DNA of 64,000 bases from a virus, in IMG/VR virus record IMGVR_UViG_3300032215_000643, positions 14,923 to 78,922 of that record, one strand, 5' to 3'. Positions 4,210 to 43,249 of this stretch are shown piece by piece (position 1 is the stretch's first letter; each line of letters opens with the position of its first letter). The translations under genes and the position numbers were made by a program. The notes under the pieces were generated by a model that saw nothing but the letters and a program-made list of their open reading frames with translations, was not told the DNA's origin and searched no databases.

Positions 4210-4216
4210 TAGTAGT

Positions 4217-5236: not shown

Positions 5237-5241
5237 ATATT

Positions 5242-5254: not shown

Positions 5255-5274
5255 GAAAATGACGCGGAGATGAA

Positions 5275-6053: not shown

Positions 6054-6063
6054 GAGATAGTAA

Positions 6064-8211: not shown

Positions 8212-8213
8212 CA

Positions 8214-23550: not shown

Positions 23551-23843
23551 AATCTCAGAAATGTGCCTATGCTGAATGTGGGAAAGAATTTGTAAAGTCT
23601 ACTCACAATCAAAAGTATTGTTCAGATGATTGTTGTAGGACTGCAACTAACTTAAAGATTCGTGAAAAGTATTATGAGAATAAAGAGCGTTTAAATGGTA
23701 AAAAAAGAATATGTTCTAAGTCCCGTTGTAAGAATGTTTTGAGTAGATATAATGTTTTAGATATATGTCAAGAGTGTCAGGGTAAAGTTGAAATAGATCA
23801 AAGAAGTAAATTAATTGGAATGTTGAAAAGTGTCTCTGGCTAA
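23547..23843 (+). CDS. Cys-rich zinc-finger protein
   Basis: C...C, YCS..C and further CxxC motifs. Confidence 0.6.
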   Translation: MKSQKCAYAECGKEFVKSTHNQKYCSDDCCRTATNLKIREKYYENKERLNGKKRICSKSRCKNVLSRYNVLDICQECQGKVEIDQRSKLIGMLKSVSG

Positions 23844-24396
23844 ACTTCATAAGTCAAAGGCTCATAGAATTCTGGGTATAGATGCTAGTACGTTGAGCAT
23901 CGCTTTTTGTATTTTAGAAGATAGTAAGCCTGTTTCTTATGGTGAAATAACTTTTGAAGGTTCTGACGTTTATGAAAGAATGTTGGATGCTAAAAGAAAA
24001 ATTCGGGCGTTGAAAAATCTTGGTATGTTTGATGTAGATTTTGTGGCAATTGAGGCTGGCGTTGTTGTGAAGTCTATTCATATTGGTATTAAGATGGCCT
24101 ATATCTTTGGTGTGATTATGGCAGAGTTGCTTGAGAATAATATTGAGGTTGTTGAGTGTCATCCTATAACGTGGCAGTCTTTTATTGGTAATAAGAATTA
24201 TACTAAAGTTCAGAAGCAGGCAGTAAAAGATGAATTTCCCGGTAAATCTGAGACATGGTATAAAAATAAAATCAGACAGAACAGGAAAGCATTTACTTTA
24301 CAGTTTATGCATGATAAGGGTATAATTACTACTAGCGATAATGTTGCTGACGCAGCGGGTCTGGCTTGGTACGCCTCCCATAATCTTACGAGGTAA
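23830..24396 (+). CDS. RuvC-like resolvase
   Basis: ILGIDAS, VAIE, DNVADA catalytic pattern. Confidence 0.8.
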   Translation: MSLAKLHKSKAHRILGIDASTLSIAFCILEDSKPVSYGEITFEGSDVYERMLDAKRKIRALKNLGMFDVDFVAIEAGVVVKSIHIGIKMAYIFGVIMAELLENNIEVVECHPITWQSFIGNKNYTKVQKQAVKDEFPGKSETWYKNKIRQNRKAFTLQFMHDKGIITTSDNVADAAGLAWYASHNLTR

Positions 24397-24548: not shown

Positions 24549-25580
24549 ATGAAAAAAGCATTGATAACTGGGGTTACTGGGCAGGACGGTTCTTATTTAG
24601 CGGAACTTCTTCTTAGTAAGGGGTACGATGTTCATGGTATGAAGAGAAGGTCTTCTTCTATTAATACTGAAAGAGTTAATCATATTTATGATAACAAGAA
24701 TTTTAAGTTGCATTATGGAGATTTAACAGATGCAACTAGTACAATGCATTTGATTTCTGATATTCAACCAGATGAAATATATAATCTTGGTGCCCAGAGT
24801 CATGTGCAGGTTTCATTTGAGATCCCAGAATATACTGCACAGGTAGATGCTATTGGAACTTTAAGAATTTTAGAGGCAGTTCGTCTTTTAGGCATGAAAG
24901 ATAGAACTAGGATTTATCAAGCATCTACTTCAGAATTGTACGGTTTAGTTCAGGAAGTTCCTCAAAAGGAGACTACTCCTTTTTATCCAAGGTCACCTTA
25001 TGGTGTCGCAAAATTGTATGGTTTTTGGATTGTAAAAAATTATAGAGAATCTTATGGGCTTCATGCAAGTTCTGGAATTTTATTTAATCATGAATCTCCA
25101 CGTCGTGGTGAGACGTTTGTAACGAGAAAGATCGTAATGGGATTGGCAAATATTTTTGCGGGTAATCAAGAAGTGATAAGACTTGGTAATTTAAATGCTC
25201 GCAGAGATTGGGGCCATGCTAAAGATTTTGTGGAAGCCATGTGGTCGATGTTGCAGCAAGAAGTTCCAGATGATTATGTTATTGCTACTGGAAAACAGTA
25301 CTCTATTAAAGAGTTTGTTGAGGCTTGTTCTCCATATTTTAATATGTCAATTGAATGGCGTGGCGAGGGTGTTAATGAAGTAGGAATTGATACTAATACG
25401 GGTAATCTTGTTATTGAAGTTGATTCACAATATTTTAGGCCGTCTGAAGTTGATAGCCTTTTGGGTGATGCAAGTAAGGCAAGACGTAATCTATCTTGGG
25501 AACCTAAAATAACATTTGAAGAATTAGTAAGTGACATGTGTGTGAGTGAATTAAATTTAATAAAAAGGAATAGTAAATGA
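24549..25580 (+). CDS. gmd: GDP-mannose 4,6-dehydratase
   Basis: [49 protein letters not shown]. Confidence 0.97.
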
Positions 25581-26194
25581 AATCAAAAGAGAAGTTTGTA
25601 ATTAGTAAGAGTGAAGTTCGTAGTTTTGATCGTTCCCACCTTAACGAATTTGCTTTGTATGAAGGAAATTTTGAAGGTCAGGGTTTTATTCTGGACCGTG
25701 ACCCAAGGTATGAAGACCCATATAACTTGTATGGATATCTTTCTCATAAATTTAACAATACGACTATTCTGGATATTGGTACGCGCAGTGGCAATTCGGC
25801 GATTTCCTTTTCTTCCAATCCAAACAACAAGGTAATATCTTTTGATATTAAAGAATGGCCTAGTTTTAAAAATCTAAAGAAAGATAATATTGAACTCCGA
25901 CTTGGAGATTTTATGCAAGATACAAGCATCAATTATGAAGAAGTATCCATTATCATGATTGATGTTGATCCTCATGATGGGCTACAAGAGCCTCCCATGC
26001 TAGAGTTTTTGCGTAACATAGGTTGGAGTGGATTGTTATTACTTGATGATACTGGACCAAACCTGTTCCCTGCTATCTACTATATGTGGATGACTATTCC
26101 AGAAGAAAAATTTGACCTAACAGATATTGCACATTTTTCAGGAACCGGATTGCTAAATTTTGGGGACAAGTACGACATAGAGATAGTAGAATAA
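25577..26194 (+). CDS. Class I SAM-dependent methyltransferase
   Basis: [11 protein letters not shown] motif I; IDVDPH; LLDD. Confidence 0.75.
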
Positions 26195-27018
26195 TGAGAA
26201 TCCTAGTTCTTGGTTCTGATGGGCAGATAGGTTCGCACCTTGTCAAATATTTAGAAAACCTTAATCATACAGTGGTTCGTTGGGATAATGCTTCTGAGTT
26301 TGAAAAAGATTTACGCATAGTCAATGACAAGTTTGAGGTAGAGGTTTCTGATTCTGATTTTGTTTTCTTTCTCGCCTTTGATGTTGGTGGCTCAAGGTAC
26401 CTTTCAAAATACCAGAATACATATAGTTTTTTAAATAATAATATTAAAATAATGGATAATGTGTTCAATGTTTTAAACAAAACTAAGAAACCTTTTATAT
26501 TTTTAAGTAGTCAGATGTCGAATATGATTCATTCTCCTTATGGAATAACTAAATTGGTTGGTGAATCGTATACTAAAACTATTGGTGGATTGTCAGTAAG
26601 GTTGTGGAATGTTTACGGTTTAGAGAGTGATCCCGAAAAGTTTCATGTGATTACTGATTTTATTAATATGGCTAGAAATGATGGGTATATTAAAATGATG
26701 ACTGATGGAAAAGAATCAAGAGATTTGCTTTATGTAGAAGATTGTTGCGAGGGTCTGGTTAATGTTATGGAAAATTATGAAAATATTTCAAGTGAAGAAA
26801 ACCTTTGCCTAGCGTCATTTGAAAATGTTACGATCAAAGAGGTCGCAGATATTATTGCAGAAAAGTATTCTGTAAATGTAATTGCTGGTGATAAAATTGA
26901 TTTAATTCAATTAGATATGAAGAATCAACCCGGTCAAGAAATTTTAAAATACTGGAGTCCTAAGACAGCGTTACGGGATGGTATCTATAAAATAGTAGAA
27001 GAAATGGAAAATAGATGA
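26194..27018 (+). CDS. NAD-dependent sugar epimerase/dehydratase
   Basis: GSDGQIG Rossmann motif, YGITK, NVYG, RDLLYVED. Confidence 0.88.
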   Translation: MRILVLGSDGQIGSHLVKYLENLNHTVVRWDNASEFEKDLRIVNDKFEVEVSDSDFVFFLAFDVGGSRYLSKYQNTYSFLNNNIKIMDNVFNVLNKTKKPFIFLSSQMSNMIHSPYGITKLVGESYTKTIGGLSVRLWNVYGLESDPEKFHVITDFINMARNDGYIKMMTDGKESRDLLYVEDCCEGLVNVMENYENISSEENLCLASFENVTIKEVADIIAEKYSVNVIAGDKIDLIQLDMKNQPGQEILKYWSPKTALRDGIYKIVEEMENR

Positions 27019-27827
27019 TAAAAGTAGATTTACATTCTGCTGAAATTTTTACTGAAGTTCGTGCTACTTCTTTAAATAATTTTAATAAAAATTTTCATTG
27101 GGTTCAAGATGGTACGGGTGACATTGAAATGTTTATAGATAGGCATATTCAATTAAAAACTAGTGATTTTCATTCTTTATCTAAGCCTTCATACGGATGG
27201 CTATTGGAATCAAAAACTATTATTCCCGAAATTTATCAATGGGTGGAGGATTATAAAAGTTATCTTAAGTTAAACTTTAAAGGAATTTTTACTCATGATG
27301 CTGAACTGTCTAAAAAAGATCCAGACTTTTTTCTTTTAACAATGTGTAACGCAGCACCTTGGGTCACTGATAGGAATATTCATCCTAAAAGCAAATTGAT
27401 ATCAATGATTAGTTCTGATAAAAGTTTTGCAGAGGGGCATAGGCATAGGTTGTCCTTGGTGGATAAGTATAGGAATGGGGTAGATCTTTATGGAAGAGGG
27501 ATTAGAACTTTTAGTCGTAAAGAGGAACCCCTAGTGGATTATATGTTTTCTATTAATATAGAAAATGCTAAGTATGATAATTATTTTACAGAAAAACTTA
27601 CAGACTGTTTTGCCTGCGGAACGGTACCTATTTTTTATGGTTCTGATGCTATAGTTGATGAGATGTTTGATAGTAGGGGCGTTATTAAACTTACCCATGA
27701 TTTTTCAATTGATCAAGTATCTAAAGATTTGTATTACGATATGATGCCCTATATTAAAAATAATTTTGAAATCGCTTGTCAAATTAAAACAGCGGAAGAT
27801 TACATAGAAGAAAAATATTTTGCATGA
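27015..27827 (+). CDS. GT10-like alpha-1,3/4-fucosyltransferase
   Basis: 'YMFSINIEN...YFTEKL.DCF..GTVPIFYG' FucT motif. Confidence 0.75.
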   Translation: MIKVDLHSAEIFTEVRATSLNNFNKNFHWVQDGTGDIEMFIDRHIQLKTSDFHSLSKPSYGWLLESKTIIPEIYQWVEDYKSYLKLNFKGIFTHDAELSKKDPDFFLLTMCNAAPWVTDRNIHPKSKLISMISSDKSFAEGHRHRLSLVDKYRNGVDLYGRGIRTFSRKEEPLVDYMFSINIENAKYDNYFTEKLTDCFACGTVPIFYGSDAIVDEMFDSRGVIKLTHDFSIDQVSKDLYYDMMPYIKNNFEIACQIKTAEDYIEEKYFA

Positions 27828-29194
27828 TTGAATTAATAATTTTTGACCTAGATGGTGTTCTAGTGGATATTAAAAAGTTGCATTTTGATGCTTTAAATGA
27901 AGCGTTGTCTGAAGTTGACTCTAATTATATTATTAATCATGATGAGCATTTATCTATTTATGATGGGCTTAAGACTAAAGAAAAATTAAATATGCTTACT
28001 AGGAACAAGGGTTTGCCCGAAAAAGATCATGATAAAGTGTGGTCTAGAAAACAGCAATTGACAATGGAAATGCTAGATTGTTTAGAGCCTAATGAAGATT
28101 TAATTTATGCAATTAAAAAATTAAAAGAGTCTGGATTCAAGGTTGCTTGCTGTTCTAATTCAATCGTGTCTACAATAAATAAAGCATTAGAAAAAATTGG
28201 TGTAATTGAATATTTTGATAATATTCAGGGAAATGATAATGCAATAAACTCTAAGCCCCATCCTGAATTGTACTGGAGGGCGATGATTACTTTAAGCGTA
28301 ATGCCAGAGAAAACTTTAATTGTAGAAGATTCTCCGATTGGCTTGCTTGCAGCAAAGCGGTCTGGTGCCCATTTTATCAGGGTAAATAATAGTAATGATT
28401 TGAAAATAGAAAGATTAGAAAGTGAATTAAATTCTTTAGATAGCAAATTAGAAGTTAATTGGAAAGATCCACGGTTAAATGTTGTGATCCCAATGGCTGG
28501 TAGTGGAACAAGGTTTCAAAAGGCTGGCTATACTTTCCCTAAACCATTGATTGATGTAAATGGAAAGCCGATGATTCAGTGGGTAGTAGATAATCTTGGG
28601 ATAGAAGCAAATTTTATATTTATTGTGCAAAAAACTCATAGAGAAAAGTACAATCTTGATTCTATGCTTAATTTAATTTCACCTAAATGTAAGATAGTAG
28701 AAGTTGATGGGATTACTGATGGGGCTGCTTGCACTACGTTGCTTGCTAAAGAGTATATAAATAATGATGCCCCGATGCTAATGGCAAATTCAGATCAGTT
28801 TTTAGAGTGGGCTTCTTCTGAATTTCTTTATAAGATGTATGAGCAAGGCAATGATGGTGGGATTGTTACTTTTAAGTCTACTCACCCTAAATGGTCGTTT
28901 GCTAAGACAGATGATTTTGGTAAAGTTTTAGAGGTAGCAGAAAAGAATCCTATATCTGATAATGCTACTGCTGGAATTTATTATTGGAAGCATGGAAGTG
29001 ATTATGTTAAATACGCTGAGCAGATGATTGCTAAAGAAGTTCGCGTGAATAATGAATTTTATGTGTGTCCAGTTTTTAATGAAGCGATAGAAGATGGTAA
29101 GGATATTAAAATTTTTAATATTGAAAAGATGTGGGGTCTGGGTACACCAGAAGATTTGAATCATTTTTTGAACAATTATGAAAGAAAACATTAA
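27824..29194 (+). CDS. HAD phosphatase-nucleotidyltransferase fusion
   Basis: N-terminal FDLDGVL, KPHP and EDS; C-terminal IPMAGSGTRF...PKPLI and LGTPEDL. Confidence 0.88.
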   Translation: MIELIIFDLDGVLVDIKKLHFDALNEALSEVDSNYIINHDEHLSIYDGLKTKEKLNMLTRNKGLPEKDHDKVWSRKQQLTMEMLDCLEPNEDLIYAIKKLKESGFKVACCSNSIVSTINKALEKIGVIEYFDNIQGNDNAINSKPHPELYWRAMITLSVMPEKTLIVEDSPIGLLAAKRSGAHFIRVNNSNDLKIERLESELNSLDSKLEVNWKDPRLNVVIPMAGSGTRFQKAGYTFPKPLIDVNGKPMIQWVVDNLGIEANFIFIVQKTHREKYNLDSMLNLISPKCKIVEVDGITDGAACTTLLAKEYINNDAPMLMANSDQFLEWASSEFLYKMYEQGNDGGIVTFKSTHPKWSFAKTDDFGKVLEVAEKNPISDNATAGIYYWKHGSDYVKYAEQMIAKEVRVNNEFYVCPVFNEAIEDGKDIKIFNIEKMWGLGTPEDLNHFLNNYERKH

Positions 29195-30024
29195 TGAAGA
29201 AGTCCTGTTTTGTTTGTCCTGTTCACCCTCCTAAATATCATTTTGCTGAGCAACTTGTTCAAAGTTATAATAATTTTTATGAAGATTCAGATTTATTTTT
29301 GGTATTTTCAAATGTTGAGGAAAGACTGTTATTTGAAGAATTAACATTAAATAAGAATTTAAATTATAAGAGCATAATTTTTTCAGAAACTTTAAGTGAT
29401 TATCCTATTACACAAAAAAAGTTCTTTGGGCTTCAGTATGTGTTTGAGAATACGGATTTTGAAAAAGTTGGCGTGATAGATTGTGATTCAGTATTTATTA
29501 AAACTGTTGATTATGATTTCCTGTTTGATGAGTTTTATGAAAAGAAAAAGATTTATGGCACAACGCTTACAGAACATGGTGGTGTTTTGCCACCGGGAGC
29601 AATTAGAACAATAACTTCATCACCTCTTCCTCTTTTTAGTGAAGAAGATCAGAACGATATAATTTTAAAAACAAACAATCTGAGTTTGTATTTTTGGTTT
29701 AATAATATTCCAATATATGAAAAAACTAATTTTAAAAATTTTATTGAGTATATTGATTATGATGGGAGTAAATTAAATCCTGTAGGTTTGGATTTTGATT
29801 TTATTGTATATTGTTATTTCTTAATGATAAAAGATCTTATTGTTTTAGAGGATATGAATTTTGAAATAGAGTTGGGTTTTTTGGAAGAGCAAAAAAATAT
29901 TCCTGTTGAAATTTTTGTGCCGTTGTTTCAAAAGATCGAACCGTTTTGGCTAACAAAACCTGAGTATCTTCCAGAAGAGATGTTAAAAAATGTTTTTATT
30001 AAATTTCATGTGGATCGTTTGTAG
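29194..30024 (+). CDS. Putative GT-A glycosyltransferase
   Basis: IDCDSVF DxD motif; glycan-cluster context. Confidence 0.45.
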   Translation: MKKSCFVCPVHPPKYHFAEQLVQSYNNFYEDSDLFLVFSNVEERLLFEELTLNKNLNYKSIIFSETLSDYPITQKKFFGLQYVFENTDFEKVGVIDCDSVFIKTVDYDFLFDEFYEKKKIYGTTLTEHGGVLPPGAIRTITSSPLPLFSEEDQNDIILKTNNLSLYFWFNNIPIYEKTNFKNFIEYIDYDGSKLNPVGLDFDFIVYCYFLMIKDLIVLEDMNFEIELGFLEEQKNIPVEIFVPLFQKIEPFWLTKPEYLPEEMLKNVFIKFHVDRL

Positions 30025-30029
30025 GTTAT

Positions 30030-30476
30030 GTGATTAAAATAATATGTCATCGTGGAAATATTGATGGTCCTGATCATTTAAAAGAAAATGATCCATCCTT
30101 TATTCAATCTGCATTGGACTTGGGTTTTGATGTAGAAGTAGATGTTTGGCTGATGGATGAAAAGTATTACCTTGGTCATGATGAGCCGCAGTACGAGACT
30201 TCTTTGTTATGGTTAGAAGATCGTAGTGACAAATTGTGGATACATTGTAAGAATTTTGAAGCATTAAAGTCTTTTAGTTTAAATAATAATTTAAATTATT
30301 TCTGGCATCAAGAGGACAAGTTTACTTTGACATCTAAAAGATTTATTTGGACTTATCCAAATAACGAATTGGGTCAAAGTTCGGTGTGCGTATTGCCAGA
30401 AAAGGGATTTATTGGTACACTAGATAAGTGTCACGCTGTTTGCACCGATTATCCTATGAGGTATAGTGGATTTTAG
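30030..30476 (+). CDS. GDPD/PLC-like phosphodiesterase
   Basis: HRGN...EN...GFDVEVDV...LGHD. Confidence 0.8.
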   Translation: MIKIICHRGNIDGPDHLKENDPSFIQSALDLGFDVEVDVWLMDEKYYLGHDEPQYETSLLWLEDRSDKLWIHCKNFEALKSFSLNNNLNYFWHQEDKFTLTSKRFIWTYPNNELGQSSVCVLPEKGFIGTLDKCHAVCTDYPMRYSGF

Positions 30477-31179
30477 TTTTGGAATCATAACCGATGGTTC
30501 TTCTGATCACAATATAAGTTTGATGATCGATAGTATTGAAAGAATGAATATTCCCAATTATGAAATAATTATAATTGGGAACTCTGCTATCTCAAGGAAG
30601 AATACTACAGTAGTCCCCTTCGCGGAAGAAGTTTTACAAATGTGGATTACTCATAAAAAGAATCTAATAACAAAAAATGCTAAGTATGAGAATATAGTTT
30701 ATTTACATGACTATATAATTTTTAATGAATATTGGTATCAAGGGTTTTTAATTCATGGAAATGATTTTAATGTCTGTATGACAAAGATAATCAATTTAGA
30801 TGGTAGTCGTTTTAGAGATTGGGTTCTTTGGCCTCATAATAATAATGACATGGACGCTCTTACTCATCCATCACTTCAATGTTTAATCCCATATGAAGTT
30901 AGAAATCTTTCAAAATACATGTATATTTCTGGTTCTTATTGGGTTGCAAAAAAGACACTCATGGAAGAATTCCCTTTGGATGAGAGCCTTGTCTGGGGTC
31001 AGGGGGAAGATGTTGAATGGTCGTTTCGGGTTAGAGATAAGTTTGATTTTTCTATGAATGAATTGTCTAGTGTCCATTTGCTGAAGTATAAGCCAGCAGT
31101 ATTTTATCCTCCAGATGAGAATACGCTTGAGTTGTTAAAGAAATTTGGTAATGATACAGAAGAATTGGAAGTTTTATGA
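30466..31179 (+). CDS. GT2-like glycosyltransferase
   Basis: YEIIIIG, KKN...AKYENIVYLHD, GEDVEWS. Confidence 0.75.
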   Translation: MDFSFGIITDGSSDHNISLMIDSIERMNIPNYEIIIIGNSAISRKNTTVVPFAEEVLQMWITHKKNLITKNAKYENIVYLHDYIIFNEYWYQGFLIHGNDFNVCMTKIINLDGSRFRDWVLWPHNNNDMDALTHPSLQCLIPYEVRNLSKYMYISGSYWVAKKTLMEEFPLDESLVWGQGEDVEWSFRVRDKFDFSMNELSSVHLLKYKPAVFYPPDENTLELLKKFGNDTEELEVL

Positions 31180-31817
31180 TACATTGCATAGGAGATAGTC
31201 ATTCCGCATTTTTTAGTGGTGTGGAAGATATGCAACCACAGTGGCCCAGTATTGCATCGAATGCTTTGCCTTGGTTTAAGAGTTACAGAATTGGCCCTGC
31301 GACAGCATATAATTTAGACAGTAAGCGGGATCTGATAGAGTCTATTTACTTTTCTGGTCTAGTTGCAGAGAACGATTCTGTAATGTTTTGTTTTGGTGAA
31401 GTTGATTGTCGCGCACATATAATAAAGCAGGCTGCCTTGCAGGGCCGGGGGTTCCATTCGGTTGTAGAAGAATGTGTTAACCGTTACATACGTTCTATTG
31501 AATATTACGAGAACTATGGTAGAAAAATTTTGGTTTGGGGTCCAATCGCTTCTTGGAATGATAGTAAACCTTACACTGGTCCATCTTATGGGACAAATTT
31601 AGAAAGAAATCAAGTTTCAAAAATGTTTAATGAAATTCTAAGTAAAGAATGTGAACAACGCGGTTACACGTTTGTTTCTATCTTTGAGAAAATGTTGAAT
31701 GAAGATTCGACAACTAATACTTTATATCTAGACAATTGGGAAGGTTCTCATATGCATCTTTCTCAAACAGCCATGCCGATGACGTTGGAAGTTTTTACAG
31801 AAAAGGGAATTATATGA
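31176..31817 (+). CDS. SGNH/GDSL hydrolase (possible O-acetyl esterase/transferase)
   Basis: IGDSH, GEVDCR, C-terminal H. Confidence 0.7.
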   Translation: MIHCIGDSHSAFFSGVEDMQPQWPSIASNALPWFKSYRIGPATAYNLDSKRDLIESIYFSGLVAENDSVMFCFGEVDCRAHIIKQAALQGRGFHSVVEECVNRYIRSIEYYENYGRKILVWGPIASWNDSKPYTGPSYGTNLERNQVSKMFNEILSKECEQRGYTFVSIFEKMLNEDSTTNTLYLDNWEGSHMHLSQTAMPMTLEVFTEKGII

Positions 31818-32578
31818 ATTGGGATATAGAAAAACAATATGCTACAAATTATTTAACGTCATGTCTGATTGCAGCCTTAGATGATCAAACTTTTAATAAT
31901 TTTAAAAAAGATCCATACTATCAGGGAATTTTAGAACATATATCTTATCAAGAGTCTTTATGGTATTTGGATAATCTATTAGATGAAAATTTGATGTTGA
32001 ATAATCTGGCAAAATTAAGAGAAAATGATAATTTTTGTAATGCAGAAATTTTGGATTATGAAAATATTGGAAAATTTTCTCCTTCTACTATAAGATATAT
32101 AAAACAGTCTGTAGACATTGCTGTATTTTTTAAGGATAAGAATATTCGCAAAGTTTTTGAAATTGGTGGGGGGTACGGCGGTTTGTGTAAGACGTTGAAT
32201 GTGTTTATAGATTTTGATGCTTATGTAATCGCAGATTTTGATAATTGTAATAAATTGTCTTCTAGGTATTTGAACTTGTTTAAAGAATTTGATAATAAAA
32301 TTTTTTATCAAGATTGCGAGAATCTTAAAGAAGAAAATGATATTGATTTATTGATTAGTAATTATGCTGTTTCGGAACTTGACTGGGATGGTCAATTGGA
32401 ATATTATGAAAAAATTATTAAAAATTCAACAAATTTTTATATAACATATAATTTTATTAATAATTCAAGTAGCCCTTATGAAAAATTTATTGAATTATGC
32501 AGCAAAGATTTTGATGTTGAAATTAAAGATGACAACCTTTTTTCAAACAGGGTCTTATTTGGCGTTAAGCGGGGATAA
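31814..32578 (+). CDS. Putative sugar O-methyltransferase
   Basis: PSTIRY, EIGGGYGG, SNYAVSEL. Confidence 0.75.
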   Translation: MNWDIEKQYATNYLTSCLIAALDDQTFNNFKKDPYYQGILEHISYQESLWYLDNLLDENLMLNNLAKLRENDNFCNAEILDYENIGKFSPSTIRYIKQSVDIAVFFKDKNIRKVFEIGGGYGGLCKTLNVFIDFDAYVIADFDNCNKLSSRYLNLFKEFDNKIFYQDCENLKEENDIDLLISNYAVSELDWDGQLEYYEKIIKNSTNFYITYNFINNSSSPYEKFIELCSKDFDVEIKDDNLFSNRVLFGVKRG

Positions 32579-32583
32579 TCAGT

Positions 32584-33516
32584 ATGAATATTGATAGTTT
32601 AATTTATGTTGCTGGTCATAGAGGTTTAGTTGGCTCAGCCCTTGTTCGTCGTTTGAAAGAGCAGGGGTATACAAATATTATTACTATGACTAGAAACGAG
32701 TTAGACTTGACTGATTCTGTTGCGACAGCAGAATTTTTTGCTAGTCATCGTCCCGAATATGTTTTTGACGCGGCAGCAAAAGTTGGGGGCATTTATGCCA
32801 ACGATAATTATTCTGCAGAATTTATAAATGAAAATCTTTCTATTCAAACAAACTTAATTCATAATTCATGGAAGTATAGTGTCAAGAAATTTCTTTTTAT
32901 GGGTTCTGTCTGTATTTATCCAAAATATGCTGAGTGCCCAGTTAAAGAAGATTCTCTTCTTACTGGAAAGTTGGAACCTACCAATGAGGCTTATGCAATT
33001 GCAAAAATAGCAGGAATTAAGATGTGTGAAGCCTATAATAAACAATATGGTTTTCAATGTTTATCTGTAATGCCATCCAATCTTTATGGACCTAACGACA
33101 AGTTTGATCCAGCCAACGGTCATGTTATTCCAGCAATGATAGTGAAGTTTCTATCAAGTACCGATCAGGTCACTTTTTGGGGTGACGGAAGCCCATATAG
33201 AGAATTTTTACATTCCGATGATATGGCAGACGCTTGCATTGTTTTGATGAACAGTTTAGAAACTGGTAATGCTGAGTTAATTAATATTGGTTCAGGAGAC
33301 AATATTTCTATAAAAGATTTAGCAGAAAAAATATCTAAAGTTATTGGATACTCTGGTGAAATTAATTGGGATACGGTTAGACCCAATGGGACACCGATGA
33401 GGCCACTTGATTTTTCTAAAATAAAGAAACTAGGCTGGGAGCCAAAAGTTTCTTTAGATGAGGGGTTGAAGGAAACGGTGACTTGGTATAGAATGAACGA
33501 GGATGGTGTCAGGTGA
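32584..33516 (+). CDS. fcl: GDP-L-fucose synthase
   Basis: AGHRGLVGSA, AAKVGGI.AN, LEPTNEAYAIAKIAG, NLYGPND, REFLH. Confidence 0.96.
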   Translation: MNIDSLIYVAGHRGLVGSALVRRLKEQGYTNIITMTRNELDLTDSVATAEFFASHRPEYVFDAAAKVGGIYANDNYSAEFINENLSIQTNLIHNSWKYSVKKFLFMGSVCIYPKYAECPVKEDSLLTGKLEPTNEAYAIAKIAGIKMCEAYNKQYGFQCLSVMPSNLYGPNDKFDPANGHVIPAMIVKFLSSTDQVTFWGDGSPYREFLHSDDMADACIVLMNSLETGNAELINIGSGDNISIKDLAEKISKVIGYSGEINWDTVRPNGTPMRPLDFSKIKKLGWEPKVSLDEGLKETVTWYRMNEDGVR

Positions 33517-34262
33517 TTAGTTTTAATAGTTTGGGTAGTCTTGGTCGTCTAGGAAATCAAATGTTTCAGTACGCCTCCTTAAAGGGCATTGCTAGGAATA
33601 GAGGGTTTGAGTTTTCTATTCCTTGGAGTCCATTCTTAGATCCTTGGCGTGACCATCAACTTTCTAATGTTTTTAAATTACAAGATAATTTAATTTTAAA
33701 TTCTCCAGAACAACCTTATACTGCTGAAGAAAAGTTTTTTGGTTTTGATTATGATTTGTTTAACTATGTTGAAGATAATTCGGATCTTGTTGGCTATTTT
33801 CAAACAGAAAGATATTTTTCTCATATAAAGGATGAGATTTTAGAAGATTTTTCTTTTAAAGAAAAGTTTGATGATGTGGTTTCAGATTATTTTACAGTTA
33901 TTCATGTGAGAAGGACAGACTATCTGGCTTTTAGCAATCATCATCCCACTTGCTCTTTAGATTATTACAAGGAAGCGATGGACATTACTGGTGGACCTTT
34001 TCTTGTAGTCTCAGATGATATTGAATGGTGTCAAAAAAATATTACTGCTGATGAGTATTCTAAATCTTCCAATGTTAAAGATTTATATTTGATGAGTAAA
34101 GCAAAAAATAATATAATTGCTAATAGTTCTTTCAGTTGGTGGGGGGCATGGCTTAATCAAAACCCTAATAAAAAAGTTATTGCTCCAAATAAATGGTTTG
34201 GTCCTGCTTATGATCATTATAATTTGGAAGATCTTATCCCAAAGGAATGGATTAAACTGTAA
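33513..34262 (+). CDS. GT11 alpha-1,2-fucosyltransferase
   Basis: GRLGNQMFQYA, GYFQ, HVRRTDY, SDD, NSSFSWWGAWL. Confidence 0.92.
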   Translation: MISFNSLGSLGRLGNQMFQYASLKGIARNRGFEFSIPWSPFLDPWRDHQLSNVFKLQDNLILNSPEQPYTAEEKFFGFDYDLFNYVEDNSDLVGYFQTERYFSHIKDEILEDFSFKEKFDDVVSDYFTVIHVRRTDYLAFSNHHPTCSLDYYKEAMDITGGPFLVVSDDIEWCQKNITADEYSKSSNVKDLYLMSKAKNNIIANSSFSWWGAWLNQNPNKKVIAPNKWFGPAYDHYNLEDLIPKEWIKL

Positions 34263-34873
34263 TGATAAATAGTATTGTTGAGAAAGCATATTGTATTTCT
34301 TTAGAAAGAAGGCCCGACCGATGGGTCGCAGCAGAAGAACAGTTTAAAAATAATGGTATGGTTGTTGAAAAATTTTTAGCAACAGATGGGGCTTTGCTAG
34401 AGCCAAACCCAGCCTTACACAGCGGGGAAGCAGGATGCTTAGACTCGCATAGAAGAGTCTTAAAGGACGCAATAGATAATGATTTAGAGTGCATCGCAGT
34501 GTTTGAAGATGATGTGTATTTTGTTGAAAACTTTGCTTCGCGGTTTGATGAATATTTTCGTGAAGTTCCCTCAGATTGGCAATTCTTATACTTAAGTTTT
34601 AATCGTCATTCTGGTCAGACTATGAGGGTTACAGATAGGGTTGTTAGAATTTCTAATGCTTATTCAGCACATGCATTGTTTTTAAAACGAGATGCGATAA
34701 ACTATTCTTATAACTTAATGTTAAATGATTCATTGCCTTCAGATGTGTACTTTGGAATGGCTCAGTATGCGTATCCAGCATATGGGCCTTCTAGAATGCT
34801 TGCAGGTCAAAGAACTGGTTTTTCAGATATTGTTCAGCAAGATGTTAATTACGATTGGATTTATGGATTATGA
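34262..34873 (+). CDS. GT25 glycosyltransferase
   Basis: ISLERRPDR, GEAGCLDSH, VFEDD. Confidence 0.88.
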   Translation: MINSIVEKAYCISLERRPDRWVAAEEQFKNNGMVVEKFLATDGALLEPNPALHSGEAGCLDSHRRVLKDAIDNDLECIAVFEDDVYFVENFASRFDEYFREVPSDWQFLYLSFNRHSGQTMRVTDRVVRISNAYSAHALFLKRDAINYSYNLMLNDSLPSDVYFGMAQYAYPAYGPSRMLAGQRTGFSDIVQQDVNYDWIYGL

Positions 34874-35433
34874 TTTCTACAGATACTTTAAGAAATATTT
34901 TTAACGATAGTGGTAGTGATAAGTCTAGTTCTCATAATTATGAGGTTGCTTATTCTCAAATTTTGCCGGAAAAAATTGATTCAATGTTAGAAGTTGGAAT
35001 TTCTAATGGTCATGACGGTAAAAGTTCTTTGTGGGCTTGGAGTGTGCTTTATCCAGATGCAAAAATTTATGGCGCGGATAATGATATTGTTAAACTTATA
35101 AATGATAATAATATTGAAAGTTATAGGTTAGATCAATCTGACGTTCTTCAGTTGTTTGAATTTTCTAAGTTATTTGAAAAAAAATTAGATGTTATTGTTG
35201 ATGACGGAAGTCACGTTTTTAAACATGCTTTTCTAACTTATCAATTTCTTTTTCATCTTACAGATCTATATATTATTGAAGATATTGCAAAGAATTATAA
35301 TGGGTGGCAGCAGACAGTTGCTGATTGGAAAAATGAATTAGATGGTCAAGAAAATATTCTGTATGGAGTAATTGACACTCTCCCTGAAGAAAAAATGGAT
35401 GACAGTGTTGTTATTTGGATAAAAAGGAAATAA
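34870..35433 (+). CDS. SAM-dependent (sugar O-) methyltransferase
   Basis: GSDK...HNY, MLEVGI, DQS, IVDDGSH, YIIED. Confidence 0.8.
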   Translation: MISTDTLRNIFNDSGSDKSSSHNYEVAYSQILPEKIDSMLEVGISNGHDGKSSLWAWSVLYPDAKIYGADNDIVKLINDNNIESYRLDQSDVLQLFEFSKLFEKKLDVIVDDGSHVFKHAFLTYQFLFHLTDLYIIEDIAKNYNGWQQTVADWKNELDGQENILYGVIDTLPEEKMDDSVVIWIKRK

Positions 35434-35437
35434 TTTA

Positions 35438-36196
35438 ATGTTTTTTAATTCAATAGAAAATTTGATTAAGGTCAATGTTCCAGAATTTCCTGTTGTCATT
35501 CCGACATTTAATAATCCAACATATTTAAAGAAAACTGTTGATTATTTTTCCGAAAGGGGCTTTGAAATCATTGTATTAGATAATGCTTCAACTTACCCTC
35601 CAATGCTAGAGTTGTTGTTTAATTTATCTGAAGAGGATAATATTTTTGTCGTTGCTTTGCCAAGCAATTATGGTCCAAGATATTTTTATGAAAATAAAAA
35701 TTTTTATTCATGGCTTCCTAATCATTTTTTTGCAACAGATCCAGATTTAGAATTTAACAAAAATTTGAAAAAAGAAAATTGGCTTGAGTTAATTGAAGTT
35801 AGCAGAACACTTGGAGTATATAAAGTGGCGGCTGCCCTTACCTTGGATATTGAAGATAGTGAACATGAACTTGATGTTTTGATTTCTAGTATGAATACTA
35901 CTGTTAGAAAAATAGAAAGTGGATATTATGAAAATATTTGCATGGTCACAGATCAGGGTGACACAGTTTACATAGCCCCAACAGATACCACCATGTCTCT
36001 CTATAATAAAGAATTTGAAGGACATTTCATGCTTTCTTGTGTTAGAGTTTCAGGGAAATTTGACACATTGCATTACGGTTGGTTGACTAATCCACCCATC
36101 CCAAAAGAGGAAAAAGATTATTATACAGAAGCCTGTAGAGATAATTTTTATTCATCAGGGGAAGTTGTTAAAAGAGGTCAAGGACCAACTTACTAA
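35438..36196 (+). CDS. GT2-like glycosyltransferase
   Basis: VIPTFN, LDNASTY, TDPD. Confidence 0.7.
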   Translation: MFFNSIENLIKVNVPEFPVVIPTFNNPTYLKKTVDYFSERGFEIIVLDNASTYPPMLELLFNLSEEDNIFVVALPSNYGPRYFYENKNFYSWLPNHFFATDPDLEFNKNLKKENWLELIEVSRTLGVYKVAAALTLDIEDSEHELDVLISSMNTTVRKIESGYYENICMVTDQGDTVYIAPTDTTMSLYNKEFEGHFMLSCVRVSGKFDTLHYGWLTNPPIPKEEKDYYTEACRDNFYSSGEVVKRGQGPTY

Positions 36197-36780
36197 TGCC
36201 TAAATTTTCAGTAATAGCCGTAGATTATGAAAAACATGTTCCTCGCCAAGGAATGATTGATGGATTAAAATCTCTTGCAGAGCAAACCTTTCAAGATTTT
36301 GAACTCATCATTTGTCATGATGGTCCAAAGGAAGTTCCCTATGAAGAAGAAGTAGGCTTTAAAGAATTAGGGATTTCCCCTATAATTATAAATACACCAC
36401 ATCATGTTGGTGACTGGGGTCATTCAAGCCGTGATTTTTCTATGAGGCAGGCTACTGGTGAATACTTTATTCAATTTAATATAGATAATAAATTTTACCC
36501 CACCGCTTTTGAAAAAATAAATGATTGTATTGAAGAAACTTCTTCAAGAGTGGTTATTTTTACAATCCAACACTTCAAAGAGGGTGGTAGATTTATTAAG
36601 GGTGTCCCTCCAACACACGCTCAAATTGATTGTATGCAATTAGTTGCACATAGAAGTGTGTGGGAAGAAATTGGTTATTGGTATAACAAAAATAATGAAT
36701 CTGATGGTTATATTTACACAAATATTGGACAAGAATATCCGTATGTCCATATTGATGAATGTTTAGGGGAAAATTATTAA
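36196..36780 (+). CDS. GT2-like glycosyltransferase, paralog 1 of 3
   Basis: KFSVIA, QTFQDFELII.HDG, FNIDN. Confidence 0.8.
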   Translation: MPKFSVIAVDYEKHVPRQGMIDGLKSLAEQTFQDFELIICHDGPKEVPYEEEVGFKELGISPIIINTPHHVGDWGHSSRDFSMRQATGEYFIQFNIDNKFYPTAFEKINDCIEETSSRVVIFTIQHFKEGGRFIKGVPPTHAQIDCMQLVAHRSVWEEIGYWYNKNNESDGYIYTNIGQEYPYVHIDECLGENY

Positions 36781-37367
36781 TGAAGTTTTCTGTTATTGCA
36801 GTTGACTATGAAAAGCATGTTCCAAGAGAGCGCATGGTTAAAGGTTTGCAATCTTTAGCGAATCAATCATTTCAAGATTTTGAGTTGATTGTAATCCATG
36901 ATGGTCCTAAAGAAATTCCTTATGAGGAAGAGTTTGATTTTTCTGTTTTCCCAAACGAGGTAAAGTTTTTAAATACAGAAACAAGAATGGATAATTGGGG
37001 CCATTCAAGTAGAGATTTAGGTATGAGAAATGCTTCTGGTGAATTCTTTTTCCATTTTAATATTGATAATCTTCTTTATCCAGATTGTTTTGAAAAAATA
37101 AATAATAAGTTAGAGGAAACAACCGCATTGGTTTTATTATTTGCTATTCTTCACTACAAGATTAATAATGGGACTTTTCCTTTTTACGGTCTTCCTCCTG
37201 TTTATCATAACATTGACGCTATTCAATTGGTTGCTCACAGAGAAATTTGGAGCAGTGTTGGATATTGGTATGATTTGCATGAACAGGGTGATAGTGCAAT
37301 CTATGAGAAAATGTGTAAAGATTATGGTTGGGCCTATATAGATGAAGTTTTAGCGGAGAATTATTAA
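36780..37367 (+). CDS. GT2-like glycosyltransferase, paralog 2 of 3
   Basis: Same motifs; start ATG 36780 overlaps the previous stop. Confidence 0.8.
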   Translation: MKFSVIAVDYEKHVPRERMVKGLQSLANQSFQDFELIVIHDGPKEIPYEEEFDFSVFPNEVKFLNTETRMDNWGHSSRDLGMRNASGEFFFHFNIDNLLYPDCFEKINNKLEETTALVLLFAILHYKINNGTFPFYGLPPVYHNIDAIQLVAHREIWSSVGYWYDLHEQGDSAIYEKMCKDYGWAYIDEVLAENY

Positions 37368-37949
37368 ATGAAAGTTTCTATTATTGCAGTTGACTATGAG
37401 CATCACGTTCCAAGGGACGGTGCTTACAGGGGTTTGCTTTCAATTTCTGAGCAAACTTCTAAAGATTTTGAACTTATAATAGTTCATGATGGACCCAAGG
37501 AAATTCCTTATGAGGAAGAGTTTGATTTTAAAGAATTAAATTTAAATCCAGTAATAACCAATACTTCTCACAGGATGAATGATTGGGGGCATTCTTCTAG
37601 GGATTGGGGGATGCGTATGGCAAACGGTGATTATTTCCTGCAATTCAATATTGATAATGTTCTTTACCCAGATGCCATAGAAGAAATTTGTAAAAAGATT
37701 GATGGATCTGGTACGCCAATAATTATTTTTAGTATTATCCATCACAAAGATAATGATAAGGTCTATACAGGAATACCCCCAGACCTGTACAATATAGATT
37801 GTATGCAACTTGTCGGTCACAGGGATATGTGGCAAGAATTGAACTATTGGTACGATAAACGAGATAGTTCTGACGGTTGGATCTATGAAGTTATTACTAG
37901 AAAATATAATTATTCAAATATTGAAAAATGTTTAGGCGAAAACTACTAG
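37368..37949 (+). CDS. GT2-like glycosyltransferase, paralog 3 of 3
   Basis: Same motifs; ends LGENY. Confidence 0.8.
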   Translation: MKVSIIAVDYEHHVPRDGAYRGLLSISEQTSKDFELIIVHDGPKEIPYEEEFDFKELNLNPVITNTSHRMNDWGHSSRDWGMRMANGDYFLQFNIDNVLYPDAIEEICKKIDGSGTPIIIFSIIHHKDNDKVYTGIPPDLYNIDCMQLVGHRDMWQELNYWYDKRDSSDGWIYEVITRKYNYSNIEKCLGENY

Positions 37950-37956
37950 GAGAATT

Positions 37957-38970
37957 GTGAAAAGGGTTTTACTAACCGGAGCGTCTGGTTTTGTGGGAAG
38001 CCATGTACTGCGTCATATTATTTTAAATACAGATTGGTTTGTGGTTTGTCCAACAACCTTTACTCACAAGGGGTTACAGGATAGAATCAGGGTTGCTTTG
38101 GATGACCTTCCAGATGCGTACAAGCGGGTAAAAATTATTCGTTGTGACTTTACCTCTCCAATTTCTCCCATTACTGCCAGAGAGTTTGGTAACGTGGATC
38201 TTGTTATTAATGTGGCAAGTGAAAGTCATGTTGATAGAAGTATCGAAGAGCCTGCCCAGTTTGTTATTAATAATGTGTCATTGATTTGTCACGTTCTTGA
38301 TTGGGCTAGGAATTCAAATATTGAAAAGTTTATTCAAGTTTCTACTGATGAAGTTTATGGTCCTGCTCCTGATGGGTATGCTCATATTGAATGGGAAGAT
38401 CAGCATCTACCTAGTAATCCTTATTCTGCTTCAAAGGCTGCTCAGGAAGATATTGCTTTCTCCTATTGGAGAACTTATGGAGTCCCGTTAATTATTACTA
38501 ATACTATGAATATTATTGGTGAGACTCAAGACCCAGAGAAATATATTCCAATGACTATTAAAAATGTTATTGATGGAGAAAAAGTTTTAATTCATGGTTC
38601 TCCTGATGATGGTAGGATTGGTAGTCGTTTTTATTTACATGCGCGTAATCAGGCTGATGGATTACTTTATGTCTCTAACTTGCCAGCACCTGCATATGGG
38701 GAATCTAATATGCCAGCAAGGTATCATATTGCGGGTGAGCGTGAAGTTGATAATTTAGAGATTGCAAAATTAATTGCAGAATATGTTGGTAAACCTCTTA
38801 ATTATGAAATTGTTGATTTTCATTCTTCAAGGCCCGGTCATGATCTAAGATATGCTCTTAATCAAAATAGGATTGAAAATGCGGGATGGAAGATGCCTCT
38901 TCCGTTTGAAGAATCTTTAGAAAGAACTGTTAAGTGGACATTAAATCATCCCGAATGGCTCATGATCTGA
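37957..38970 (+). CDS. rmlB: dTDP-glucose 4,6-dehydratase-like protein
   Basis: GASGFVG, SESHVDRSI, STDEVYG, YSASKA, RPGHDLRY. Confidence 0.85.
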   Translation: MKRVLLTGASGFVGSHVLRHIILNTDWFVVCPTTFTHKGLQDRIRVALDDLPDAYKRVKIIRCDFTSPISPITAREFGNVDLVINVASESHVDRSIEEPAQFVINNVSLICHVLDWARNSNIEKFIQVSTDEVYGPAPDGYAHIEWEDQHLPSNPYSASKAAQEDIAFSYWRTYGVPLIITNTMNIIGETQDPEKYIPMTIKNVIDGEKVLIHGSPDDGRIGSRFYLHARNQADGLLYVSNLPAPAYGESNMPARYHIAGEREVDNLEIAKLIAEYVGKPLNYEIVDFHSSRPGHDLRYALNQNRIENAGWKMPLPFEESLERTVKWTLNHPEWLMI

Positions 38971-40539: not shown

Positions 40540-40823
40540 AAAAGAAACAACAAATTTCGGCTCGTATCCCTTACAACAATCCAGATATAACAGTTTATAC
40601 AGAATTAGAATTTGGTAAAGACGTTATTAAGCCGGGGGATAAGATTAAAATTAAGAATGCTCGCGGATATTTTGTTTTTCATAAGTGGGCACATAATTCT
40701 CGTCTTGATGTGACATGGATTGATTGTATGAATCCAAACACTGGTGAGTTCAGGTCTTTTTATATGGATAACCTTAAGGGTGTTCATCGTGCTAAAAAGA
40801 GTATAAGGAAGAAACTTGTCTAA
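40536..40823 (+). CDS. Hypothetical protein (SH3-like)
   Basis: GTG start overlapping the previous stop. Confidence 0.55.
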   Translation: MKKKQQISARIPYNNPDITVYTELEFGKDVIKPGDKIKIKNARGYFVFHKWAHNSRLDVTWIDCMNPNTGEFRSFYMDNLKGVHRAKKSIRKKLV

Positions 40824-41340
40824 AGAATTAGAAGTTGCTGAACGCTTTGACTCTATGAATAGAGTTGTTGAAGAGTTGCTTAAGGGTAATAATCCTACTC
40901 AGATAGCAAAAATTCTTTCTATCAAGCGTGCCACTGTGCTTGAACTTATTGAAGACTGGAAGAATATTGTTCACAATGATAATAGTATCCATGTTCGCGC
41001 TAGAGAGGCTTTAGCGGCTGCTGATCAGCATTATGCCATGATTATTAATCGGGCGTGGGAAACAGTTGAGCAGGCTGATTCAAATCAACAGTACAGCGTT
41101 AAGGCGGGGGCTTTAAAACTAGTCGCAGACACAGAGGCAAAACGTATGGACATGCTTAATCGCGCTGGTCTTTTAGAGAATAATGAAATGGCTGATAAGA
41201 TTATCGACAATGAACGTAAACAAGCATTGTTGATGGGTATTTTAAGAGACGTATCCTCACAATGTGATCATTGTAAGTATGAGGTTGCACAGAGACTTTC
41301 TCAGGTAACAAATCAAGTAGAAGTGATACGAGAAGATTGA
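40816..41340 (+). CDS. terS: Terminase small subunit (HTH)
   Basis: N-terminal HTH, helical body, directly upstream of TerL. Confidence 0.6.
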   Translation: MSKELEVAERFDSMNRVVEELLKGNNPTQIAKILSIKRATVLELIEDWKNIVHNDNSIHVRAREALAAADQHYAMIINRAWETVEQADSNQQYSVKAGALKLVADTEAKRMDMLNRAGLLENNEMADKIIDNERKQALLMGILRDVSSQCDHCKYEVAQRLSQVTNQVEVIRED

Positions 41341-43175: not shown

Positions 43176-43248
43176 ACGCCGGTATCCTAGCGGTTTTGGA
43201 AGCGGTCTTATATACCGTGTATCGTGAGTTCGATTCTCACCCGGCGTA
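43176..43248 (+). tRNA. tRNA-Ile (anticodon TAT)
   Basis: Acceptor ACGCCGG/CCGGCGT; anticodon arm GCGGT-CTTATAT-ACCGT; T-arm GTGAG-TTCGATT-CTCAC; no encoded CCA. Confidence 0.88.
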
Positions 43249-43249
43249 C

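Follow-up and report, generated by a model that had tools for sequence, protein, structure and literature searches.

A gene island for a putative fucose-rich glycan in a recombining slot of a probable aquatic actinophage: a candidate cytoplasmic route to virion glycosylation

The viral record IMGVR_UViG_3300032215_000643 of IMG/VR is 78.9 kb long and is rated 64% complete. Its positions 14923-78922, a stretch of 64,000 nucleotides that is hereafter called the window, contain an island of genes for nucleotide-sugar synthesis and glycan assembly at 24549-38970. The phage (G000) was compared with related IMG/VR genomes and loci, which are designated G001-G009 or by L-numbers. An earlier note on this DNA had described 19 tightly coupled genes, and this description holds. 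All 19 open reading frames (ORFs) lie on the + strand, and the junctions between neighbours range from -11 to +7 nt, mostly as overlaps of 1 or 4 nt, after three upstream TTG/ATG starts were replaced by in-frame ATGs at 31814, 34870 and 36780. The ATG at 31814 (formerly 31736) yields a 4-nt overlap with the preceding gene, and the start at 34870 was moved from 34855. The catalytic motifs of the island enzymes are intact throughout. The genes are the following:

24549..25580, + strand: gmd, GDP-mannose 4,6-dehydratase (TIGR01472, 555 bits, cut-off 415)
25577..26194, + strand: possible methyltransferase, weak (Methyltransf_24, E 0.031; PrmA, E 0.0011)
26194..27018, + strand: short-chain dehydrogenase/reductase (short SDR, 274 aa), candidate NDP-4-keto-6-deoxyhexose epimerase/reductase (PF01370, 96.5 bits; phrog_540)
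27015..27827, + strand: GT10-family fucosyltransferase-like protein, 270 aa, C-terminal catalytic domain only (PF00852, 36.8 bits, cut-off 23.9)
27824..29194, + strand: fusion of a HAD domain (beta-phosphoglucomutase-like) and a sugar-1-phosphate nucleotidyltransferase (PF13419 and PF00483)
29194..30024, + strand: u276, glycosyltransferase of predicted GT-A fold without a Pfam domain (AF2 model, pLDDT 92.8)
30030..30476, + strand: u148, truncated protein resembling glycerophosphodiester phosphodiesterase (GDPD), weak (phrog_34507; HRG motif; GDPD 7e0v, E 0.075)
30466..31179, + strand: u237, probable GT-A glycosyltransferase (nearest Atlas cluster viral, labelled 'glycosyltransferase family protein')
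31176..31817, + strand: SGNH/GDSL-like esterase or acyltransferase, weak (PF13472, E 5.5e-4, under the cut-off; GDS block I at residue 6)
31814..32578, + strand: sugar O-methyltransferase, NanM type (TIGR04371, 42.9 bits, cut-off 44; GxGxG motif)
32584..33516, + strand: fcl, GDP-L-fucose synthase (NF047922, full length, 417 bits, E 5e-125, under the curated cut-off of 500)
33513..34262, + strand: GT11-family (alpha1,2-type) fucosyltransferase (PF01531, 93.7 bits; motifs HVRRTD and SSFSWW)
34262..34873, + strand: small GT25-family glycosyltransferase, 203 aa (PF01755, 57.3 bits)
34870..35433, + strand: deoxysugar O-methyltransferase, MycE/TylE type (phrog_21658; PDB 3ssm, 2e-7; 8ia9, 2e-4)
35438..36196, + strand: GT2 glycosyltransferase, 252 aa (PF00535, 27.9 bits; DPD motif)
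36196-36780, 36780-37367 and 37368-37949, + strand: three tandem paralogous small GT2 genes, about 195 aa each (PF00535)
37957..38970, + strand: RmlB-like NDP-glucose 4,6-dehydratase, conserved right end of the island (TIGR01181, 217 bits, under the cut-off of 365)

By family assignment, the island is predicted to encode nine soluble glycosyltransferases (GTs), namely the GT25, GT11 and GT10 proteins, four GT2 enzymes and two further GT-A-type proteins, together with two or three O-methyltransferases and an SGNH-like enzyme. By homology, the GT25 protein connects the island to a known function. It matches mycobacteriophage proteins Che8 gp110 (BLASTP, E 5e-8) and Corndog gp38 (5e-5), which are themselves PF01755 members, and all three proteins are 203-211 aa long. 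The two fucosyltransferase families expected from the earlier note are both present. The GT10 protein, for which an alpha1,3-type linkage had been suggested there, aligns to the Helicobacter pylori alpha1,3-fucosyltransferase (5zoi/2nzw) over the nucleotide-binding motif IEN...YxTEK (FEN...YxTEK in the family), and no N-terminal acceptor-binding domain was detected by Pfam in the 270-aa protein. Relatives of the GT11 enzyme are encoded on at least 595 IMG/VR stretches, and the 80 that were kept are 43-49% identical to it.

The remaining glycosyltransferases had been counted as five GT2-like proteins and one further GT-A; four belong to GT2 in Pfam and two others are of GT-A type. The three tandem small GT2 proteins are 50-57% identical to one another and belong to a family of more than 100 homologue clusters, some of them on contigs of about 100 kb. 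The best PDB match of one of them (GT2a) is the TDP-rhamnose-dependent RmlT. A hidden Markov model (HMM) of the small GT2 family detected none of the glycosyltransferases of Che8, Corndog, Gilson or KimJongPhill, so the link to the mycobacteriophage systems rests on GT25 and not on the GT2 core. The u276 protein has 36 homologues, none with a Pfam domain, and its residue D96 is invariant within a D-x-D-like motif. Its profile found no match among PDB sequences, and the GT-A fold came from a structure search, in which Foldseek returned TarP, SpsA, the WrtF fucosyltransferase and glycogenin at probability 1.0 with TM scores of 0.35-0.46. A tblastn search against phage records and a single-sequence IMG/VR scan both gave nothing for u276, and an alignment-based IMG/VR scan placed relatives on 13 further viral contigs. 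On the evidence of its model, u276 would define a Pfam-less GT-A family. The u237 protein is probably GT-A-like on Atlas features, as its cluster lies near GT2/GT7C clusters, with HfsG at E 0.0014.

The sugar precursors can be read from the same gene set. Gmd and Fcl would make GDP-L-fucose from GDP-mannose, which is shown at the level of families and motifs and agrees with the full pathway that had been proposed. Gmd, scoring above its model cut-off, carries GxxGxxG, TSE and YxxxK; Fcl carries YxxxK and is 56% identical to the annotated Fcl of the freshwater cyanophage DSL-LC03. At the same level, the HAD-nucleotidyltransferase, the RmlB-like enzyme and the short SDR would form a second route from a hexose phosphate to an NDP-6-deoxyhexose. 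The HAD-nucleotidyltransferase has the motifs DLDGV and GSGTR and 56% identity to cyanomyovirus proteins. The RmlB-like protein matches solved dTDP-glucose 4,6-dehydratases in the PDB at 1e-45 and carries TDE and YxxxK. The short SDR has GxxGxxG and YxxxK, matches PDB SDR epimerases at 1e-10 and shows weak similarity to Fcl/WbcJ. Neither RmlC nor RmlD is encoded in the window, and the short SDR could stand in for both. In the minimal island of the complete relative G005, a clear RmlC (L100:8263-8805, + strand; PF00908, 172 bits) adjoins the RmlB-like gene, which points to a dTDP-rhamnose-type sugar for the conserved core. The second sugar would be of the rhamnose or 6-deoxytalose type, and the rhamnose-type reading is supported by this RmlC, by RmlT as the nearest PDB match of the small GT2 and by the MycE/TylE-type methyltransferase at 34870. 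The closest relatives of the RmlB-like protein are found in actinophages (Arthrobacter phage Atuin, 60%; Streptomyces phage KimJongPhill, 45%), and the gene is 95% identical in G001.

The tailoring genes are less evenly assigned. Of three proposed methyltransferases, those at 31814 and 34870 were recovered and the one at 25577 stayed weak. Its product found no match in the PDB, so the call could not be firmed up, and a 51% identical homologue occurs in G001. The SGNH and GDPD-like assignments are likewise weak. The u148 protein is 50% identical to a DSL-LC03 gene product annotated as GDPD and has an Atlas lead at 0.85.

The island also differs from its surroundings in composition. The mean GC content is 33.3% for island genes and 39.5% for core genes (p = 1e-5), and a megablast search of the island against 50,697 phage records returned no match. 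The best sigma-70-like promoter match of the region, which is weak, lies just upstream of the island (24297-24326, + strand; TTTACA-18-TATAAT, 11/12). The promoter and terminator scan gave no more sites in total than shuffled sequences, and no convincing terminator was seen inside the island.

The island sits between the RuvC-like and terminase genes. A terminase-based IMG/VR scan provided 80 loci as relatives, and in all 80 the corresponding slot is framed by a RuvC-like gene and by a small helix-turn-helix (HTH) protein before the large terminase (TerL), with a length that varies widely. In the window, the slot is marked by the following genes:

23830..24396, + strand: RuvC-like resolvase (PF02075), conserved left border, kept in all relatives
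38996-40036, + strand: GMP reductase (PF00478, 324 bits), directly 3' of the island
40816..43172, + strand: putative small terminase (HTH protein) and large terminase, right border

The GMP reductase gene is kept in most relatives with larger islands and is missing in G005. The contents of the slot in the genomes compared are as follows:

G006 and G007, 1.9 kb: methyltransferase and dNMP kinase only
G008, 2 kb: GT2 and a protein of no assigned family
G009, 2.4 kb: GT25 and a DXD transferase
G004, 4.4 kb: GT2, small GT2, RmlB-like gene and GMP reductase
G005 (complete, 101.7 kb, with terminal repeats), 4.9 kb: GT2, methyltransferase, GT2, small GT2, RmlB-like gene and RmlC
G002, 9.9 kb
G001, 14.7 kb: a glycan set different from that of the window
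G003, 15.2 kb
Window phage, 16.4 kb: the 19-gene island, GMP reductase and small ORFs

Judged from these gene contents, the slot between RuvC and the terminase appears to hold glycan genes across most of the family, the cultured phage Gilson included. The conserved core is the right end of the island, which consists of one small GT2 and the RmlB-like gene. The comparison of close relatives suggested in the earlier note gave the same slot with different contents. G001 is 94.2% identical to the window phage over 14.4 kb of DNA, and this identity ends exactly at 24396; across the island it falls to 66-73% or to nothing, and it returns to about 92% from the RmlB-like gene onward. The island of G001 has a different SDR, a GT-B enzyme, GT10, GT11 and GT25 proteins that are only 42-55% identical to those of the window, and two FkbM-type methyltransferases:

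L166:2257-2883 and L166:9625-10266, both + strand: FkbM-type methyltransferases of G001

In a third close relative, L086 (TerL 97%), the set differs again and includes the following gene:

L086:3129-4343, + strand: NDP-hexose C-methyltransferase (PF08484, 150 bits)

Apart from the island, G000 and G001 diverge strongly only in the tape-measure and tail-fibre region (window 1-8244 and the record upstream of it), where DNA identity is 70-89%. Repeated cassette replacement at the slot is shown, on sequence comparison, by these slot contents, by the G001 and L086 variants and by the GC data, and the same evidence all but excludes a chimera.

The genes around the slot place the phage near a known lineage. 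They encode a DnaB helicase, a PolIII-alpha polymerase, a UvsX/RecA-like recombinase, a Cas4-like nuclease, the RuvC-like resolvase and the large terminase. The polymerase and the terminase are 56% and 64% identical, respectively, to those of BE-type Streptomyces phages, and the order of backbone genes matches Streptomyces phage Gilson (Stanwilliamsviridae, NC_048742). Three further features of the window bear on the host:

62402-62575, + strand: WhiB-like gene (PF02467, 27.9 bits, over the cut-off)
43176-43249, + strand: tRNA-Ile(TAT), decoding an A/T-ending rare codon
54230-54303, + strand: tRNA-Arg(TCT), decoding an A/T-ending rare codon

A WhiB gene is also present in the complete relative G005, and the gene points to an actinobacterial host. 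By gene content, the phage can be described as a WhiB-bearing relative of the Streptomyces Stanwilliamsviridae phages. The GC content of the whole phage is 37%, which fits the two tRNAs for A/T-ending rare codons; this value and the sharing of genes with aquatic phages suggest a low-GC aquatic actinobacterium as the probable host. The phage appears to be lytic. No tyrosine integrase (PF00589) was found in G000, G001, G005 or G006; serine recombinases were not searched.

A further glycosyltransferase gene lies outside the island, beyond the terminase:

49127..50263, + strand: GT-B (GT4-like) glycosyltransferase (phrog_7162; PF13524)

Its homologues include Arthrobacter phage Atuin gp165 and Streptomyces phage KimJongPhill gp6. 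The occurrence of the gene is so far limited to closer relatives, with TerL identities of at least 71%; several of these have glycan islands, and the gene may belong to the same glycosylation system. Another GT-B gene adjoins the ribonucleotide reductase upstream of the portal and capsid module (L184:6576-8551, corresponding to Gilson gp22 and gp23; G001 3547-4557). It occurs in Gilson, G001, G005, G006, G008 and G009, with or without an island.

The reading that we favour, tentatively and with slightly less than even confidence, is that the island is a phage-borne, host-independent cytoplasmic glycan factory whose product is placed on virion proteins. The glycosyltransferases would add sugars one at a time to form an oligosaccharide with much fucose and deoxyhexose, which would be methylated and perhaps acylated. 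Still in the cytoplasm, this glycan would be joined to Ser/Thr-rich stretches on the surface of virion proteins such as the capsid and tail tube, in the manner of mycobacteriophages Che8 and Corndog and, by analogy, of chlorovirus capsids. The location of the island in a recombination-prone slot would give near-identical phages with different glycan types, much as bacteria swap O-antigen loci.

Several lines of evidence favour a virion target. The GT25 protein is homologous to the Che8 gp110 and Corndog gp38 enzymes of capsid glycosylation, the host is apparently actinobacterial, a group in which virion glycosylation has been shown, and the kit of Che8, a GT2 with a sugar O-methyltransferase, is a subset of the island. 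The phage is also apparently lytic and encodes no export machinery. As the earlier note had observed, membrane-bound export genes are missing: no 19-residue hydrophobic window above 1.6 occurs in any island protein, and G000, G001 and the complete 101.7-kb G005 contain no ORF with more than five predicted transmembrane segments and no initiating phosphoglycosyltransferase, flippase, polymerase or ABC exporter. Two full precursor pathways would make the glycan foreign to the host, which again favours the virion. The soluble pathway proposed earlier for a methylated, fucosylated glycan thus stands; of its two suggested acceptors, virion proteins draw support from the GT25 homology and the host, and DNA appears unlikely. 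The structural proteins of relatives add weak support. A C-terminal capsid extension of 25-30 aa, rich in Ser, Thr, Gly and Asn, and loop inserts are present in G001, G005 and G008, which are relatives with GT2/RmlB cassettes, and both features are missing in G006, G007, G009 and Gilson. The tail-tube protein of G001 has Gly/Ser/Thr-rich inserts, and the capsid gene of this phage is the following:

L171:12704-13888, + strand: G001 capsid protein, 394 aa (331 aa in Gilson), with Ser/Thr/Gly/Asn-rich loop inserts and a 27-aa C-terminal tail

Other observations weigh against this reading. The virion acceptor is one that we infer and is not visible in the sequence, and the incomplete record does not contain capsid and tail-tube genes of its own. 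The link between capsid extension and cassette involves two or three lineages and is confounded by phylogeny. A simple correlation of slot glycan genes with the extension was considered and rejected; G009 (GT25-like) and Gilson have glycosyltransferases in the slot and no extension. In G001, about 50 kb separate the island from the capsid genes, and it comes directly after the replication genes, a position from which late expression does not follow. The remaining counterarguments concern the host surface. In cyanomyoviruses, the usual interpretation of homologous clusters is modification of the host surface (PMC12801897). The predicted fold of u276 resembles TarP and GT2a resembles RmlT, both of them soluble decorators of wall teichoic acid. 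Finally, the island varies between G000 and G001 together with the tail-fibre region, a pattern that surface chemistry specific to host strains would explain no less well than virion decoration.

These last points lead to a different account, which is a serious possibility and, on balance, an unlikely one: the soluble glycosyltransferases would work at the inner face of the membrane on a lipid-linked wall polysaccharide, a teichoic-acid-like polymer or an S-layer glycan of the host. Carriers and exporters of the host would finish the product, and the new surface would block superinfection or spare progeny from being lost on debris and infected cells. Enzymes of the TarP and RmlT type act on lipid-linked host polymers or decorate wall teichoic acid, and the lack of membrane segments in the island proteins is therefore compatible with such a target. 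TarP itself is phage-encoded and RmlT is a rhamnosyltransferase, the GDPD-like gene hints at glycerophosphate chemistry, DSL-LC03 has clustered genes of the same families, and two hypervariable regions, the island and the tail fibres, would be expected if both follow the surface glycans of host strains. Known surface converters, however, carry one to three genes, whereas the two precursor pathways and nine glycosyltransferases found here would be sufficient to assemble an entire oligosaccharide foreign to the host. Genes for an initiating phosphoglycosyltransferase, a flippase or a ligase are missing, multi-pass membrane partners of the gtrABC type are absent from G000, G001 and G005, and classical lysogenic seroconversion does not apply to genomes in which no tyrosine integrase was found. 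The homology of GT25 to proven virion-glycosylation enzymes of actinophages also stands against host remodelling. The same homology points away from a free or lipid-bound glycoconjugate, such as a decoy oligosaccharide, a glycolipid or a glycosylated small molecule, which we regard as improbable. In its favour, every enzyme is soluble and the sequence points to no acceptor, the methyltransferase at 34870 has relatives among macrolide-sugar O-methyltransferases and the NDP-hexose C-methyltransferase of L086 is typical of antibiotic sugars; against this, nine glycosyltransferases would be unusual for a small-molecule glycoside, and no genes for an aglycone or a lipid lie in or near the island.

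Glycosylation of phage DNA against restriction is very improbable. The island follows recombination genes and precedes the GMP reductase gene, and phage glycosyltransferases that hypermodify DNA are cited in PMC12619734. A DNA target is made unlikely by the result of a search for a ThyA-type dCMP/dUMP hydroxymethylase (PF00303), which found none in G000, G001 and the complete G005; the control search matched 10 of 14 known genomes. Nine glycosyltransferases also far exceed the known DNA systems. We know of no precedent in DNA modification for GT10, GT11, GT25, a fucose pathway or sugar O-methyltransferases. Least credible of all is an assembly chimera or a recent, functionless capture of host DNA, which had been named as a possible flaw. 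The GC difference between island and core could suggest it, yet the island lies below the phage core and not above it, as actinobacterial host DNA would. Glycan genes occupy the same slot in at least six independent contigs from other samples, the genes lie on one strand with translational coupling and intact catalytic motifs, u237 and u148 have clusters that are 95-100% viral as their nearest Atlas neighbours, and u276 has its relatives on further viral contigs.

If the glycan decorates virions, as we tentatively prefer, virion glycosylation would extend from a few mycobacteriophages with three to four genes to abundant uncultured aquatic actinophages with full precursor pathways, and near-identical phages would swap glycan types as bacteria swap O-antigens. 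A bolder idea, which we consider distinctly doubtful, is that environmental actinophages carry 'serotype' loci, in which exchangeable slot cassettes ahead of the terminase genes would give phages of nearly the same genome different virion glycan coats, here a methylated, difucosylated Lewis-like glycan (GT25/GT11/GT10) with rhamnose-type sugars. If this were true, the diversity of virion glycans would be a second axis of specificity between phage and host or phage and environment, beside the tail fibres. The cultured phages Gilson and KimJongPhill (Streptomyces) and Atuin (Arthrobacter) carry small versions of the cassette in comparable positions, formed by gp78-80 in Gilson and gp4-6 in KimJongPhill, and offer a practical route for testing.

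The gene pool of the island is shared widely. Identities to the freshwater cyanophage DSL-LC03 (OR003938) are 74% for gmd, 56% for fcl, 56% for the HAD-nucleotidyltransferase, 50% for the GDPD-like gene and 44% for GT11. The DSL-LC03 genes form a contiguous run of gmd, fcl, alpha1,2-fucosyltransferase, GT, hypothetical, HAD/nucleotidyltransferase, hypothetical, HAD, GDPD, hypothetical, GT and GT. A four-gene module of u237, the HAD-nucleotidyltransferase, u276 and u148 (27824-31179) is found again, complete or in part, on 13 other IMG/VR contigs (e.g., L211, L212 and L217-L221), of which two also carry GT10, GT11, GT25 and gmd. Its HAD-nucleotidyltransferase and GDPD-like genes are also found in cyanomyoviruses, and this conserved module is common to many aquatic phages. 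By these homologies, the island seems to merge actinophage and cyanophage gene pools, and many of its genes would be common property of aquatic phages.

The three families GT10, GT11 and GT25 are also found in Helicobacter pylori, whose Lewis-antigen enzymes are the GT10 proteins FutA/B, the GT11 protein FutC and a GT25 galactosyltransferase, and which builds the Lewis antigen on a lipid-linked O-chain. The genes of these families are adjacent or close in the window island, in G001 and in L212. The GT10 protein of the window is without the N-terminal domain, and the likeness holds at the family level. Among phages, the T4-like cyanophage clusters draw on the same pool of gmd, fcl, GT10, GT11, GT25, GT2, HAD-nucleotidyltransferase and GDPD-like genes. 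Cyanomyovirus S-SCSM2R has 13 glycosyltransferases, with GT10, GT11, GT25 and GT2 among them, and P-SSM2, S-SCSM1 and S-SCSM2R carry clusters assigned to 'LPS / cell-wall synthesis and modification' (PMC12801897); the glycan islands of DSL-LC03 and P-SSM2 have been published (PMC10611076). The statement in the earlier note that the island is much more elaborate than known phage examples is thus true against the mycobacteriophage cassettes only, and not against S-SCSM2R or the homologous cluster of DSL-LC03. In contrast to these cyanophages, the window phage is a siphovirus-type PolIII/WhiB actinophage and not a Kyanoviridae myovirus, its host is presumably Gram-positive without LPS, and its island adds the RmlB-like gene and small-GT2 core common to Arthrobacter and Streptomyces phages.

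The closest functional parallel is found in mycobacteriophages. Cassettes for virion O-glycosylation are described for Che8 (gp108-110) and for Corndog (an O-methyltransferase and gp36-38) (PMC12363180, PMC11600133), and Che8 gp110 and Corndog gp38 are reported in PMC12363180, with reference to Freeman 2023, as essential for capsid glycosylation. These phages share with the window phage an actinobacterial host, a small, soluble, homologous GT25, GT2-type glycosyltransferases, sugar O-methyltransferases and a lack of export genes; Che8 gp108 is a GT2 fused to a TylF-like sugar O-methyltransferase. Their cassettes have three to four genes, no nucleotide-sugar pathway and a place beside structural genes or at the genome end, whereas the window island, a putative counterpart, comprises 19 genes with two precursor pathways, includes GT10 and GT11 as well and is found between recombination and terminase genes. 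Among phages nearer in descent, Gilson fills the corresponding slot from RuvC to terminase with two small glycosyltransferases and a nucleotidyltransferase, and Zukovirus KimJongPhill has its RmlB-like gene, a methyltransferase and a glycosyltransferase directly upstream of the small terminase, TerL and portal genes. Both have three genes against 19, no fucose pathway and a much higher GC content, and both come from soil and not from water. The chlorovirus PBCV-1 encodes GMD, soluble cytoplasmic GT-A domains of about 200 aa, rhamnosyltransferases and sugar O-methyltransferases, which build a capsid glycan of fucose, rhamnose and methyl-rhamnose independently of the host (PMC9614988); it is a giant virus of eukaryotes with N-linked glycans, and the likeness is an analogy of mechanism only. 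Rhodococcus cluster CB phages of similar architecture have been suggested to be glycosylated (PMC13313380). Phage islands with gmd, fcl, GT10, GT11 and GT25 were already known from cyanomyoviruses, and virion glycosylation cassettes from mycobacteriophages. What is new here is the occurrence of such an island in an aquatic Stanwilliamsviridae-related lineage, in a sharply bounded, recombining slot with a conserved core of the RmlB-like gene and a small GT2, the apparent meeting of actinophage and cyanophage genes in it, together with a GT25 link to a proven virion system and a predicted Pfam-less GT-A family.

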